From Minisyncoccota bacterium (GTDB lineage Bacteria > Patescibacteriota > Minisyncoccia > Phycocordibacterales > SW-6-46-9), in NCBI GenBank assembly GCA_040905385.1, contig JBBDRP010000002.1, positions 459,526-523,525 of the forward strand: a stretch of 64,000 bases of DNA, in the 5' to 3' direction. Position numbers and translations under genes: made by a program. Positions 32,895 through 58,053 of the stretch are shown here, one piece after another; positions within the stretch are counted from its first letter, which is position 1; each line of letters opens with the position of its first letter. Below the pieces are notes generated by a model. The model ran no database searches. It saw only the letters and a program-made list of their open reading frames with translations, and was not told where the DNA came from.

Positions 32895-33214
32895 AAAAAT
32901 GTGTTTATATTAGAATGTTTAATAATAGTATAATTATGGCATATATATTTATCTCGCACAATGAATATTCAGTTGTTTTTTAAAGTATCATCTGAAATTA
33001 AGAAAATAAATACGCCATTGAGATCAAATATTATTGCCTTCTTCATGAAAGTAGTATATTAAATACCTTTGATATTAAAACTAATCATTGGTATTATACT
33101 GAGGATTCTACTGCCGGATCGCCCGGCCTTCGCACAAGGCTTCGGCGGATAAATATCAATAGCTTCGATTTAGAAATATTTTGAAGTCATTGTTTAATCG
33201 GCTGTGAACAATTT

Positions 33215-33285
33215 TGCCGGATCGTCTAATGGTAGGACGCATGGTTCTGGTCCATGTAATCTAGGTTCGAGTCCTAGTCCGGCAA
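33215..33285 (+). tRNA. tRNA-Gln (anticodon CTG)
   Basis: Cloverleaf folds by hand: acceptor TGCCGGA/TCCGGCA, anticodon stem CATGG/CCATG with loop TTCTGGT, T-arm CTAGG-TTCGAGT-CCTAG. Confidence 0.8.
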
Positions 33286-33463
33286 CAAATTAAACGAAGT
33301 GCGATTTGGTGCCGGAAGCGAGTGCATTTCTGCACTCGCGTCAGGATTCGAAAGCCGCAGTGATGTCTGCGTTTGGCGTAGCCAAGGCGCAGACCACGAG
33401 GCGGGGTCGCGGAATTTTCTTGTCAGAGAAAATATCTGTGACCGAGTCCTAGTCCGGCAACAA
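33286..33463 (+). mobile_element. non-coding insertion downstream of tRNA-Gln ending in a 21-nt direct repeat of the tRNA 3' end
   Basis: cgagtcctagtccggcaacaa occurs at 33268-33288 and 33443-33463. The internal core 33358-33442 is about 75% identical to 52846-52922. Confidence 0.35.
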
Positions 33464-52502: not shown

Positions 52503-52702
52503 TGTGGCTGTGGGTTACACCTCACTTGTTCCTCTGCATTTTAACACAAGGATGATTTCTTAATATGTTGATAAATATGCCCTGTTCGCGTAATCTAAAG
52601 ACGTTAGCTGGGATGGCGGCCCCGTACGGGATAACCTGGCTTCGCCAGAACCACATTACGGGGTAAAAACTGGTAGATTGCTTTAACAATATAATTAAAT
52701 AA

Positions 52703-52786
52703 GCCGGGATGATGGAATTGGTAGACATGCAGCACTCAAAATGCTGTGAGCTTACGCTCGTGAGAGTTCAAATCTCTCTCCCGGCA
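52703..52786 (+). tRNA. tRNA-Leu (anticodon CAA), class II
   Basis: GCCGGGA acceptor, AATTGGTAGA D-loop, anticodon stem CAGCA/TGCTG with loop CTCAAAA, long variable arm, GAGTTCAAATCTC T-arm. Confidence 0.8.
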
Positions 52787-52942
52787 CATCGGGACTAATG
52801 CAAATTTATTTGCATTAGTTGAGATTTGAAAGGCACAGTGATGTTTCTGTTTGAGCGTAGTGAAAGGCAGAAACCACGAGCCGGGGTCGAGAAAAATTTG
52901 CGTCAGAAAATTTATTCGTGACCAAATCTCTCTCCCGGCACA
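52787..52942 (+). mobile_element. non-coding insertion downstream of tRNA-Leu(CAA) ending in a 20-nt direct repeat of the tRNA 3' end, 2 nt before tRNA-Leu(CAG)
   Basis: caaatctctctcccggcaca occurs at 52769-52788 and 52923-52942. Core 52846-52922 is homologous to 33358-33442. Contains the palindrome ctaatgcaaat-tt-atttgcattag. Confidence 0.35.
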
Positions 52943-52944
52943 CT

Positions 52945-53028
52945 GGGCGAGTGGCGGAACTGGTAGACGCGCACGGTTCAGGGCCGTGTGAGCTCACGCT
53001 CATGGGAGTTCGACTCTCCCCTCGCCCA
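52945..53028 (+). tRNA. tRNA-Leu (anticodon CAG), class II
   Basis: GGGCGAG acceptor, anticodon stem CACGG/CCGTG with loop TTCAGGG, T-arm GGGAGTTCGACTCTCCC. Confidence 0.8.
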
Positions 53029-53049
53029 CAATAATGTAAGATCTTATAT

Positions 53050-54069
53050 TTAGGATACGTAATTTGGCTCGCGTTCCAAAACGATACCAAACATATCTTC
53101 CACTCTCTTCTTTATCTCTCCCTGAACAGACAGGAGCTCTGTCGTTGTACCTCCACCATCATGAATCAGCACCAAGGCATTGTCGGCTGAGGTGCGGAAA
53201 TTACCGAAGGACTTCCCTTTCAGACCTGCCTTCTCTATCAACCAGCCAGCCGGGATCTTGACCTGACCATCTTTGAGATCAAAGCGAACGAGGTCTGGAA
53301 ATTTATCTTCCAGCTCATCAGCCTGACTTCGATCGATGACGGGATTGGTAAAGAAGGACCCAGCATTGGGTGTCGTCTCTACATTCGGAAGACGGCTTGA
53401 TCGCACCGCGACAATTGCGTCTCTGATTTCTGTTAGATCAGGATTTTCAATACGATTCTTCTCAAGATACGCCTGCAGCGAACCGTAGTCAGGAGCTGAC
53501 GGAGATTGATCCACCTGAAGCCGAAGCTTAAGCTCGGTAATGAAAAATCGGGCAAACTGGCGCTTGAAAAGACTGTTTCGATAGGAAAAATCACAATCAC
53601 TAGGCGTAAATTCACGAAACTCACCATGCTCTTTATCCCAGGCCGTGAGTGAAACAAACGTATCGGCCAGCTGGGCTCCATAAGCACCAATATTCTGGAC
53701 CGGTGCGGCACCAACCGTGCCCGGGATACCCGAAAGCGCCTCGATACCGCTAAAACCACCGGCAACTGCTTGCTTTACCAACTCATCCCAGCTTTCACCA
53801 GCCGCTGCAGTTACGATAACCTCATCTCCGATCTCTTCAAAGGAGATACCACACAACTGATTTCTCACAACAAGTTTATCAATGACGCCATCGGCAAAAA
53901 TTGTATTGGAACCGCCGCCGAGCATAAACACCTCAACCTCACACTCCTTAGCAAATCTAAAGACATTGGAGACATCGGATGTCTCCGTAAGCGTAGCGAA
54001 GTATCGGGCCGATCCGCCAAGCTTGAGCGTGGTGTGTGGAGCCAGCGGAATGTTTTCCCTAATCTGCAT
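53050..54069 (-). CDS. murB: UDP-N-acetylenolpyruvoylglucosamine reductase
   Basis: PLAPHTTLKLGGSARYF...FMLGGGSN FAD-binding motif. Confidence 0.85.
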   Translation of the reverse strand: MQIRENIPLAPHTTLKLGGSARYFATLTETSDVSNVFRFAKECEVEVFMLGGGSNTIFADGVIDKLVVRNQLCGISFEEIGDEVIVTAAAGESWDELVKQAVAGGFSGIEALSGIPGTVGAAPVQNIGAYGAQLADTFVSLTAWDKEHGEFREFTPSDCDFSYRNSLFKRQFARFFITELKLRLQVDQSPSAPDYGSLQAYLEKNRIENPDLTEIRDAIVAVRSSRLPNVETTPNAGSFFTNPVIDRSQADELEDKFPDLVRFDLKDGQVKIPAGWLIEKAGLKGKSFGNFRTSADNALVLIHDGGGTTTELLSVQGEIKKRVEDMFGIVLEREPNYVS

Positions 54070-57515: not shown

Positions 57516-57584
57516 TTCTCGCCGTCGCGATCTTGGCGGGTTTTACCCGCAGAAGTCCCGCTAAAGCGAGACGAAGGCGGGCCC
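57516..57584 (-). repeat. direct repeat copy A (distal) of the tRNA-Trp 3' end plus structured trailer
   Basis: First 40 nt are identical to 57921-57960. Overall about 90% identical to 57921-57987. Both copies end with cgggccc. Confidence 0.6.
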
Positions 57585-57673
57585 CTGCCGTCGCATAACC
57601 CATTCTTTGCGTAAAGCTACGAAGGGCAAAGAGCTATGGCAGGCACGGCACAGGGAAAATATTTGGTCACCAG

Positions 57674-57913
57674 TCATAAAAAGTGCCTGTTCATGAAAGC
57701 TCTTCCAGAACCAGACTTTAAATATTTTTCAAAATCAAAAGCCTTGTATTTTTCCTTGAAAGAAATATACATAACTAGGTCAATCGGAAGACGGTCAGAT
57801 GTTGCGGGTACATGACCATTCCTATGTCTGTGAAGACGTTCTTTCAAATCAGATGTGCAGCCGATATATGGTTTACCATCAGCACAACTGAGAATGTATA
57901 CATCGTAATTCAT
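57674..57913 (-). CDS. small GIY-YIG nuclease (YhbQ/UPF0213-like)
   Basis: DVYILSCADGKPYIGCTSDLKERLHRHRNG ... KSGSGRAFMNRH. 79 aa. Confidence 0.75.
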   Translation of the reverse strand: MNYDVYILSCADGKPYIGCTSDLKERLHRHRNGHVPATSDRLPIDLVMYISFKEKYKAFDFEKYLKSGSGRAFMNRHFL

Positions 57914-57920
57914 GACTAGG

Positions 57921-57987
57921 TTCTCGCCGTCGCGATCTTGGCGGGTTTTACCCGCAGAAGCTCGCTATGGCGAGCGAAGGCGGGCCC
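57921..57987 (-). repeat. direct repeat copy B: tRNA-Trp 3' end plus trailer hairpins
   Basis: Overlaps the tRNA-Trp 3' terminus (57981-57987). Contains hairpins gctcgc-cata-gcgagc and gcggg-taaaa-cccgc on the transcribed strand. Confidence 0.6.
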
Positions 57988-58053
57988 ACAGGGATTTGAA
58001 CCCCGAACTGAGGTTTTGGAGACCTCTGTTTTGCCAATTGAAACTATGGACCC
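57981..58053 (-). tRNA. tRNA-Trp (anticodon CCA)
   Basis: Reverse complement GGGTCCA-TA-GTTT-CAATTGGCA-AAAC-A-GAGGT-CTCCAAA-ACCTC-AGTT-CGGGG-TTCAAAT-CCCTG-TGGGCCC-G. Confidence 0.8.

Follow-up and report, generated by a model that had tools for sequence, protein, structure and literature searches.

Integrative elements that target tRNA genes, and their CIME-type remnants, use the tRNA 3′ end as their site, are bordered by tRNA-tail repeats beginning within the T loop, leave the tRNA intact and accrete in tandem. Other RNAs travel as passengers in tRNA-type transcripts, among them mascRNA/MALAT1, the tRNA-miRNA units of MHV68, plant tRNA-snoRNA genes and engineered tRNA scaffolds, in which a tRNA-like fold could recruit RNase P, RNase Z and the CCA-adding enzyme. 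SINEs and R2 non-LTR retrotransposons are short, non-coding, multi-copy sequences with tRNA-related ends that are co-transcribed with a host RNA gene and lie between flanking duplications, one boundary being fixed and the other less so. Y RNAs (YrlA) and viral 3′ tRNA-like structures unite a protein-binding stem and a tRNA-mimicking module in a small RNA, and H/ACA guides and IS110 bridge RNAs carry two target-complementary segments around an internal hairpin. The RNA family reported here resembles each of these systems in the traits just named, and departs from each of them in others. To our knowledge, its hosts, the CPR/Patescibacteria, represent a large share of bacterial diversity with tiny genomes, and almost no non-coding RNAs have been characterised in them.

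We analysed a stretch of 64 kb of patescibacterial DNA (hereafter the window), in which a tRNA-Leu(CAA) gene and a tRNA-Leu(CAG) gene are separated by an insert. The 20-mer CAAATCTCTCTCCCGGCACA was found exactly twice in the 64 kb, both times on the + strand, and no third copy was detected in the window with up to three mismatches (chance expectation 0.01), in agreement with the exact duplication described in the initial annotation. The first copy is the 3′ end of tRNA-Leu(CAA), and tRNA-Leu(CAG) begins 2 nt after the second copy ends. The approximately 135 nt between the repeats contain no credible ORF. The features of the locus are as follows.

52703 to 52787, + strand: tRNA-Leu(CAA), the gene preceding the putative cassette (ARAGORN; Rfam tRNA, 56.2 bits); its last 20 nt are DR1.
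52769 to 52788, + strand: DR1, from T-loop C56 to 2 nt past the discriminator of tRNA-Leu(CAA); exact 20-mer with two copies in the window.
52789 to 52794, + strand: anti-acceptor strand TCGGGA, reverse complement of the repeat's TCCCGG; its partner in the predicted tRNA-like fold is 52934-52939.
52795 to 52818, + strand: hairpin H0, 24 nt, with a 10-bp stem and a UUUA loop, located exactly at the acceptor/T-stem boundary of the reverse-complement arm.
52821 to 52828, + strand: anti-T strand GAGATTTG, reverse complement of CAAATCTC, the first 8 nt of the repeat.
52829 to 52922, + strand: conserved core (covariance model CM R1, 109.4 bits, E=4e-28; no Rfam family).
52923 to 52942, + strand: DR2, the second copy of the tRNA 3′ end, predicted to form the 3′ strand of the T-like and acceptor-like helices.
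52945 to 53029, + strand: tRNA-Leu(CAG), 2 nt past DR2 (ARAGORN, Rfam tRNA match).

The palindrome noticed earlier in the insert thus corresponds to the 24-nt hairpin H0. A feature missed at that stage is the reverse complement of the repeat inside the insert. Its anti-T pairing, TTCAAATCTC with GAGATTTGAA, is 100% complementary and constitutes helix 1 of the covariation count given below. Within the core, AAAGGCACA is followed by the hairpin GUGAUG..CCAC (H1), then GAGCCGG, then the long hairpin GGGGUCG..UUCGUGAC (P4). The neighbouring genes have housekeeping functions (RelA/SpoT, ParB, MurB and MurA), and MurB is 100% identical to a 'Candidatus Paceibacterota' MAG protein.

The same layout was found behind tRNA-Gln(CTG), where CGAGTCCTAGTCCGGCAACA occurs at 33268-87 and 33443-62 and has no third copy. 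The direct repeat matches at 21/21 positions here and at 20/20 in the Leu locus, and the tRNA gene is intact at both loci.

33215 to 33286, + strand: tRNA-Gln(CTG) (ARAGORN); its 3′ end, 33268-33288, is DR1 of the Gln copy.
33289 to 33442, + strand: Gln insert, composed of spacer, arm, H0, arm and core (CM R1, 103.6 bits).
33310 to 33316, + strand: anti-acceptor strand TGCCGGA, reverse complement of the repeat.
33318 to 33339, + strand: H0, the hairpin that splits the reverse-complement arm.
33343 to 33350, + strand: anti-T strand AGGATTCG, reverse complement of the repeat.
33351 to 33442, + strand: core, aligned to the Leu core at 52829-52922.
33443 to 33463, + strand: DR2, the second copy of the tRNA-Gln 3′ end.

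Genes for an HU fusion, a NADAR protein and a Na/Ca exchanger surround this locus, and no signs of a prophage or island were seen among the neighbour genes of either locus. When the two inserts were aligned without their repeats, the local alignment score was 69, compared with a mean of 16.3 ± 2.3 and a maximum of 25 in 1000 dinucleotide shuffles (z=23), and mean column identity was 77%. The proposed homology of the two inserts, which an alignment no better than shuffled controls would have contradicted, is therefore well supported.

To look beyond the window, we searched a genome set with one member per prokaryotic species for the gapped core pattern GTGATGT..CCACGAGNCGGGGTC. Of the 32 matching loci, 22 proved to be genuine copies, every one from a Patescibacteria MAG (Saccharibacteria, Parcubacteria/Paceibacteria, Nomura-, Wolfe-, Zambryski- and Yonathbacteria). 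The other 10 were discarded as GC-rich coding sequence from Actinobacteria and other phyla. CM R1, built from 24 cores, recovered 30 copies in the 22 loci, and in the window only the two already known, even with filters off; further copies elsewhere, whose absence would have counted against an element family, do exist. All but three of the 30 lie on the same strand as a tRNA and just 3′ of it, either immediately or as one of the subsequent units in a tandem array. The preceding tRNAs comprise four Leu isoacceptors, two Gln, and Tyr, Ser, Val, Cys, Ala, His, Glu, Arg, Lys and Ile. Among the three copies without an upstream tRNA, the one at locus L026 is preceded by a promoter-like TCGAAA-17-TAGAAT with an extended -10. 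Since the core, at 44-98% identity, is found again in the 22 loci after tRNAs of more than 12 identities, the earlier suggestion that it derives from the element and not from the tRNA is borne out for the shared core. It does not hold for the left part of the inserts (52789-94 and 52821-28; 33310-16 and 33343-50), which is reverse-complemented tRNA end. Two further counts concern the repeats: a strict type-B pattern (see below) matched only three loci in a metagenome scan, two of them from the organism of locus L036, and a copy of at least 10 nt of the tRNA tail was found within 600 nt downstream of 18 of 56 tRNAs in this biased set of loci.

None of the described families that we searched accounts for these RNAs. 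Rfam 15 covariance models, run on the 64-kb window and on the locus plus 11 related loci in gathering and E-value modes, returned tRNAs only, although the models include tRNA-like RNAs, Y RNA/YrlA, tmRNA, RNase P, SRP, 6S, self-cleaving ribozymes, Drum, ROOL and GOLLD. No plausible non-tRNA match was obtained over 52650-53080 with a threshold of E≤10, or in three related loci with E≤0.1, and ARAGORN reported no tmRNA in the window. Our literature search on the RNA family, in which the conserved motifs were included as text, retrieved nothing relevant. The RNA family and the assembly of its handle from the neighbouring tRNA therefore appear not to have been described previously, and the ingredients, namely tRNA-tail repeats, tRNA mimicry and hitchhiking on tRNA transcripts, each have precedent.

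Core similarity did not follow taxonomy: the Leu core is 91% identical to a Saccharibacteria copy and 77% identical to the Gln copy of its own genome. In a syntenic Cys-Leu-Lys-[element]-Leu cluster found in Saccharibacteria and Zambryskibacteria MAGs, the core is 94% identical and the tRNAs 77-92%, which indicates that the core is under constraint at least equal to that of the tRNAs. This apparent constraint speaks for a functional RNA whose paralogous subfamilies are old, and makes recent transfer harder to argue.

The core of approximately 95 nt is a covarying RNA with two hairpins and single-stranded motifs between them. RNAalifold predicted 31 pairs from the 24 cores, 17 of them with compensatory changes, so that the covariation across copies, proposed earlier as a check, was strong. 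With the closing helix included, 90.8% of the cells were paired, compared with 42-51% when partners were slid by 1-3 columns, and 23 pairs had changed on both sides; the observed values were reached in 0/500 shuffles. The predicted elements are a helix P2 (GGC/GCC, which becomes GCC/GGC in 7 of the 24 sequences), an internal loop, hairpin H1 and the long hairpin P4 (GGUCG..YGUGACC). Several G·U pairs lie on the tRNA-sense strand, one of which (columns 86-143) is invariant in 24/24 sequences. As a G·U pair on this strand would be an A·C mismatch on the opposite one, the tRNA-sense transcript is indicated as the folded molecule. The motifs GCAGUGAUG, CCACGAG, CGGGGUCG and GUGAC, situated between the helices, are invariant or nearly so.

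We compared this structure with those of known small RNAs. The GGUC/GACC base of P4 resembles the Ro-binding helix. Unlike Y RNA and YrlA, however, the family gave no Rfam Y_RNA or YrlA match even at E≤10, no rsr gene was seen, and the topology is reversed, the ends of the RNA being the tRNA-like part and no T loop or D loop being present. On inspection by eye, a hammerhead was rejected because GAAA and CUGAUGA-like motifs occur in the wrong order and spacing, and a C/D box or K-turn because variant cores do not keep GUGAUG and the covariation of GGC/GCC is that of an ordinary helix. SRP RNA, 6S RNA and RNase P RNA have no motifs in common with the element, which is multi-copy, and a group II intron domain V, an HDV-like ribozyme or a TnpB/IscB guide RNA would not fit the lack of an ORF and the left flank (both judgements also by eye).

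The copies fall into types that differ in how the core is closed. In type B copies (n=10, including Leu and Gln), the right flank is a direct copy of the last ~20 nt of the tRNA, and in 10/10 of them the left arm is the reverse complement of this duplicated end. A conserved H0 of 9-10 bp normally splits the arm exactly between the complements of the acceptor strand and the T strand, and homologues of H0 are present in other copies. Three tRNA-specific segments are thus interleaved with the conserved 5′ spacer AGUGAA..GAACGAG, H0 and the core, an arrangement that rules out simple fold-back synthesis at the junction. Nor is the arm a copy of the tRNA's own 5′ strands, as in a degenerate duplicated tRNA: at G·U stem positions it is the Watson-Crick complement in 4/4 cases (Tyr, Val, Ala and Gln-TTG), and its complementarity extends to T-loop bases 54-60 and, in part of the copies, to the trailer or an encoded CCA.

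Given that the arm is complementary to the downstream repeat, the transcript is predicted to fold as a tRNA-like three-way junction, in which H0 follows an acceptor-like helix at the point from which a real tRNA would extend its D and anticodon arms, and the core takes the position of the T loop. The acceptor-like helix stacks on the T-like helix with the discriminator and trailer at its end, and the closing helix covaries; the D arm is missing. This junction was the unconstrained minimum free energy (MFE) structure in 9 of the 10 type-B copies, including Gln (-85.5 kcal/mol, z=-7.8), and lay 2.7 kcal/mol above the MFE in the Leu copy. The 20-mer is therefore a duplicated tRNA end, as first annotated, and not a mere target-site scar, since its second copy provides the 3′ strand of the predicted acceptor-like and T-like helices. 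Both target-complementary segments of the family match one strand and are already paired in cis with DR2 in this prediction, unlike those of H/ACA guides and IS110 bridge RNAs. As further differences, no ACA box at fixed spacing was apparent by inspection, no Cbf5-type partner or IS110 recombinase accompanies the copies, the bases of the target left unpaired are inconsistent between copies, and a 20-nt duplication is foreign to both systems.

Type A copies instead carry a conserved 5′ hairpin of their own, terminator-like in form, start directly after the discriminator, end in GTGAC/CACA (the slash marks the junction) and have a repeat of 3-10 nt only. Other cores were found within the same layout of arm, hairpin, arm, core and repeat: those of L028 (Leu-TAG) and L039 (Ser), those of L048 (Glu) and L057 (Trp), and hairpin-only mini cores. 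In decayed copies, the arm remains perfect to the real tRNA and DR2 has drifted (21/21 versus 14/19 in L047, Lys; likewise in L054, Ala, and L046, His). Either selection that maintains pairing to the tRNA or its gene, or correction of a quasipalindrome formed by the nearby inverted repeats, could produce this pattern.

These observations lead us to favour, with moderate confidence, a structured-RNA cassette that piggybacks on tRNAs, is co-transcribed with them and is cut out by tRNA-processing enzymes. No promoter-like or terminator-like site was found within 52703-53029 or between tRNA-Gln and its insert. With none between the two Leu genes, and with tRNA-Leu(CAG) starting 2 nt past the repeat, the insert would have to belong to the tRNA precursor and hence to be removed when tRNA-Leu(CAG) matures; we infer both co-transcription and removal from this gene layout. 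In type B, the cassette would be closed by a tRNA-like handle made of the tRNA-tail copy and its complement, and by such mimicry RNase P and the tRNA 3′-end enzymes might, speculatively, excise the RNA and protect its ends, as happens in the engineered scaffolds. The invariant core motifs may bind a CPR protein or be catalytic. The unit of tRNA-tail copy plus insert may be duplicative or mobile, to judge from its gain and loss at different tRNAs and its tandem amplification through the flanking repeats.

The family differs from the known tRNA-linked non-coding RNAs in having a bacterial host, a mimic put together from a copy of the adjacent tRNA's tail and the complement of that tail, a passenger that occupies the place of the T loop, and processing that is conjectural. 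Several points weigh against the cassette reading. The T loop and the D arm, which are normal contacts of RNase P and the tRNA enzymes, are absent from the fold, and type A copies have no tRNA-derived helices, so tRNA mimicry cannot be essential to the core. A scaffold closed by DR2 fits the decayed copies less well than does pairing with the tRNA itself or correction of quasipalindromes. Finally, the cassette reading does not account for the matching of three interleaved tRNA-specific segments to each of more than 12 tRNAs.

A different use of the same complementarity would be a cis-acting module of the tRNA operon, in which the arm base-pairs with the upstream tRNA over its 3′ half, DR2 acts as a decoy, and the core serves as the sensor or protein-binding part of a switch that controls maturation, termination or turnover. 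DR1 and the arm are close inverted repeats that could form a long hairpin (including the trailer in the Gln copy), the arm is perfect to the real tRNA where DR2 has decayed, and type A copies have their terminator-like hairpin between tRNA and core. However, pairing of the arm must compete with the tRNA's own folding, standalone copies lack an upstream tRNA (the one at L026 having its own promoter-like site), the same tRNA works in relatives without an insert, and quasipalindrome correction can neutrally yield perfect complementarity to DR1. On balance, we regard such a switch as quite improbable.

We then considered how copies arise. The right junction of type B always reads GTGAC/C56; at least 10 copies, located at different tRNAs, show it. 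The left junction lies mostly +2 to +4 past the discriminator, and at +12 to about +40 in some copies. Across the family, the duplication ranges from 3 to about 47 nt. The repeats hold the unprocessed trailer and no CCA, indicating that they were copied from DNA or from a precursor and not from mature tRNA. A MITE, which would have terminal inverted repeats common to the family and a short duplication of fixed length, was rejected, as the inverted arms copy the local tRNA and differ at every tRNA, and the length of the duplication is not fixed; ends of IS200/IS605 or IS91 elements were also rejected, since these do not make a 20-nt duplication.

Direct repeats of a tRNA 3′ end starting in the T loop are the classic signature of an integrative element. 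The inserts could accordingly be scars of elements integrated by a tyrosine recombinase at the T loop, with the tRNA-end duplication as attL and attR, later deleted to ~135 nt. Such elements are known to form tandem arrays at a single tRNA, and the repeats of L048 and L056 extend into a diverged trailer, as expected of a foreign attP. Nevertheless, a ~95-nt core kept at 30 sites, with covariation and G·U pairs on the sense strand, is not expected of random deletion remnants. The family's inserts measure 115-185 nt, contain an internal reverse complement of the repeat that is foreign to integrative elements, and have no recombinase, with no integrase gene in or near any copy. Where attR would show a T-stem-like inverted site, all copies have the conserved GTGAC of P4 before DR2, and no core-type site at the junction. 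Distant blastn against 50,697 phage and 72,556 plasmid records gave no match, and two scans of viral contigs, with a core 16-mer and with the gapped pattern, yielded chance or coding matches only. We therefore consider a scar highly improbable.

A right junction fixed at C56 combined with a variable left one is also a boundary trait of SINEs and retroposons, and an att-type block of identity fits it equally well. Such junctions would suit an RNA-guided or retro-type homing element, a reading that we judge unlikely. Here the arm would be a bipartite guide for the sense strand of the tRNA gene and DR2 would anneal to the other strand; two staggered cuts, one in the T loop (between positions 55 and 56) and one shortly beyond the end of the tRNA, would allow a trans-acting enzyme to copy the RNA by target priming, and in this way the element would be inserted and exactly the segment between the cuts duplicated. 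Besides the junctions and the DNA-level nature of the repeats (trailer present, no CCA), homing would accommodate the Watson-Crick arm and its complementarity to T-loop and trailer bases, the closer match of the Leu core to a Saccharibacteria copy than to the Gln core, and the occurrence of one architecture with different cores. Unlike SINEs and R2, the family ends in GUGAC with no A-rich or other 3′ tail, has no Pol III promoter logic, and in its tRNA-related parts copies the local target and not an ancestral tRNA. All-against-all clustering of ORFs in 24 loci revealed no recurrent ORF family near the copies, be it a reverse transcriptase, a recombinase or another enzyme, only syntenic housekeeping genes. 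Moreover, a guide for one tRNA cannot account for the spread to more than 12 tRNA identities, and synteny across CPR classes together with a core as conserved as the tRNAs points to old vertical copies.

A bolder reading, which we rate as distinctly unlikely, is a programmable, tRNA-mimicking mobile RNA that would home into tRNA genes by means of a split guide against their 3′ part and a matching priming copy, served by an enzyme in trans and with its matched segments regenerated from the target at each jump. If true, tRNA genes of bacteria would have an RNA-guided parasite that is SINE-like and ends 3′ in the manner of a 'genomic tag', and this would be categorically new.

Comparison with related genomes bears on both homing and the cassette. 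Locus L057, whose MurB is 65% identical and which has the same MurA-MurB-tRNA-tRNA-ParB order, carries its two tRNA-Leu genes 3 nt apart with no insert, and thus provides the unoccupied site that the initial annotation had proposed to look for in relatives. Its own family copy follows tRNA-Tyr, behind which the window has none, and its tRNA-Trp is followed by an insert with a different core. Such reciprocal occupancy would be in line with homing. Between the window and L057, tRNA-Leu(CAA) is 69% identical, tRNA-Leu(CAG) 100% and tRNA-Trp 96%, and the whole tRNA-plus-insert segment appears to differ. In L061, a more distant relative, a diverged copy is present at tRNA-Leu(CAA) with an almost identical H0 (18/20 by eye), so that the empty site in L057 may be due to secondary loss through the 20-nt repeats. 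Such a possible loss by repeat recombination, in place of an ancestral empty state, is a further point against the cassette reading as a unit that is gained. Three identical 185-nt units lie in tandem behind tRNA-Ser in L070; arrays of this kind can arise by unequal crossing-over alone, which lessens their weight for homing.

A real molecular partner is likely for a multi-copy RNA whose core is conserved like tRNAs and lies outside Rfam. The RNA is unusually constructed in that the tRNA-like handle is made from the neighbouring tRNA's own tail and the complement of that tail. If the handle is a processing signal, as in the favoured cassette, it would be a natural equivalent of the engineered scaffolds. 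A guide function of the complement would represent a new way to target tRNA genes. For annotators, the covariance model covers DNA that is presently called intergenic.

Small GIY-YIG genes were observed as a separate tRNA-adjacent cassette with its own conserved leader. A GIY-YIG gene as autonomous partner of the RNA was considered and set aside as unproven, the sole link being a GGTGAC/CAAAT junction at the window's tRNA-Trp. The tRNA genes of CPR bacteria are thus hot spots for at least two hitchhikers, these RNAs and the small GIY-YIG genes.

The gene for a small GIY-YIG protein, together with its leader, is a second tRNA hitchhiker, this one protein-coding. In the window it lies behind tRNA-Trp, where the following features were annotated:

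57979-58053, minus strand: tRNA-Trp
57516-57987, minus strand: cassette region downstream of tRNA-Trp
57674-57913, minus strand: GIY-YIG ORF of 79 aa (Pfam E=8e-12)
57918-57985: GIY-YIG leader site at tRNA-Trp

More than 1000 homologues of the small protein, 76-132 aa in length, were found (most of them 77-82 aa; 64-81% identical). Among the 120 matches listed, almost all named sources were Patescibacteria, with one Phaeodactylibacter MAG. The gene adjoins tRNA-Ser in all four homologue loci examined (L071, L073, L074 and L076). Both in these four loci and at the window tRNA-Trp, a conserved leader of about 60 nt, rich in hairpins (TTCGCTCGCCnnAGCGAGCTnCGGCGGACAnnGTCCGC..GATCGCGAAGGAGAG), precedes the gene; it begins directly after a tRNA end ..CGCC. 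At L073, this tRNA end is a remnant, and an intact tRNA-Ser lies downstream. A further locus, L041 (250-474), carries a GIY-YIG ORF within a 5' partial tRNA duplication; here the junction falls in the D loop.

Following the stop codon of the window GIY-YIG gene, we found GGTGAC/CAAAT..CCCTGTG..GGGCCCGCC. The GTGAC/C56 junction, at which GTGAC meets base 56 of the tRNA T loop, is common to this site and to the structured RNA elements inserted behind other tRNA genes. Beyond it lies a 3' half of a tRNA-Trp, interrupted by insertions of 6 nt and about 68 nt. We also observed an imperfect direct repeat of about 70 nt (tRNA-Trp tail plus trailer) on both sides of the ORF, including exact blocks of 40/40 (57516-57555 and 57921-57960) and 13/13 nt (57572-57584 and 57975-57987). 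At 62-135 in L057, a relative with the same MurA-MurB-tRNA-tRNA-ParB order, the tRNA-Tyr tail copy 3' of the element is itself split: a 6-nt duplication (CCTACC) brackets an insertion of 37 nt. The decaying repeats therefore gain further small insertions.

In the window and CPR loci, most tRNA genes carry CA or CAA directly 3' of the discriminator (..N73-CA..), as opposed to an encoded CCA. The motif CACAA after the discriminator marks the start of type A elements, which have their own 5' hairpin.

At 3920-4279 in L026 (minus strand), the standalone element copy was noted just 5' of a tandem-CsrA-like ORF of 119 aa with, by eye, two LILTRR..IGV-type repeats. No obvious GGA-loop pattern was seen in the element core, and this proximity is probably coincidental.

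Finally, two fragments about 50 nt apart 5' of the window tRNA-Leu(CAA) (52606-52679), GCTGGGATGGCGG and AACTGGTAGA, resemble the 5' part of this tRNA in relatives (GCCGGAGTGGCGGAACTGGTAGA in L057). These fragments may be left over from a native tRNA whose place was taken by the present tRNA-Leu(CAA), 69% identical, and its insert. The first 10 nt of tRNA-Gln (TGCCGGATCG, 33215-33224) recur exactly 103 nt 5' of the gene (33112-33121); this 10-mer, short enough to arise by chance, may represent a 5' partial duplication as in L041.
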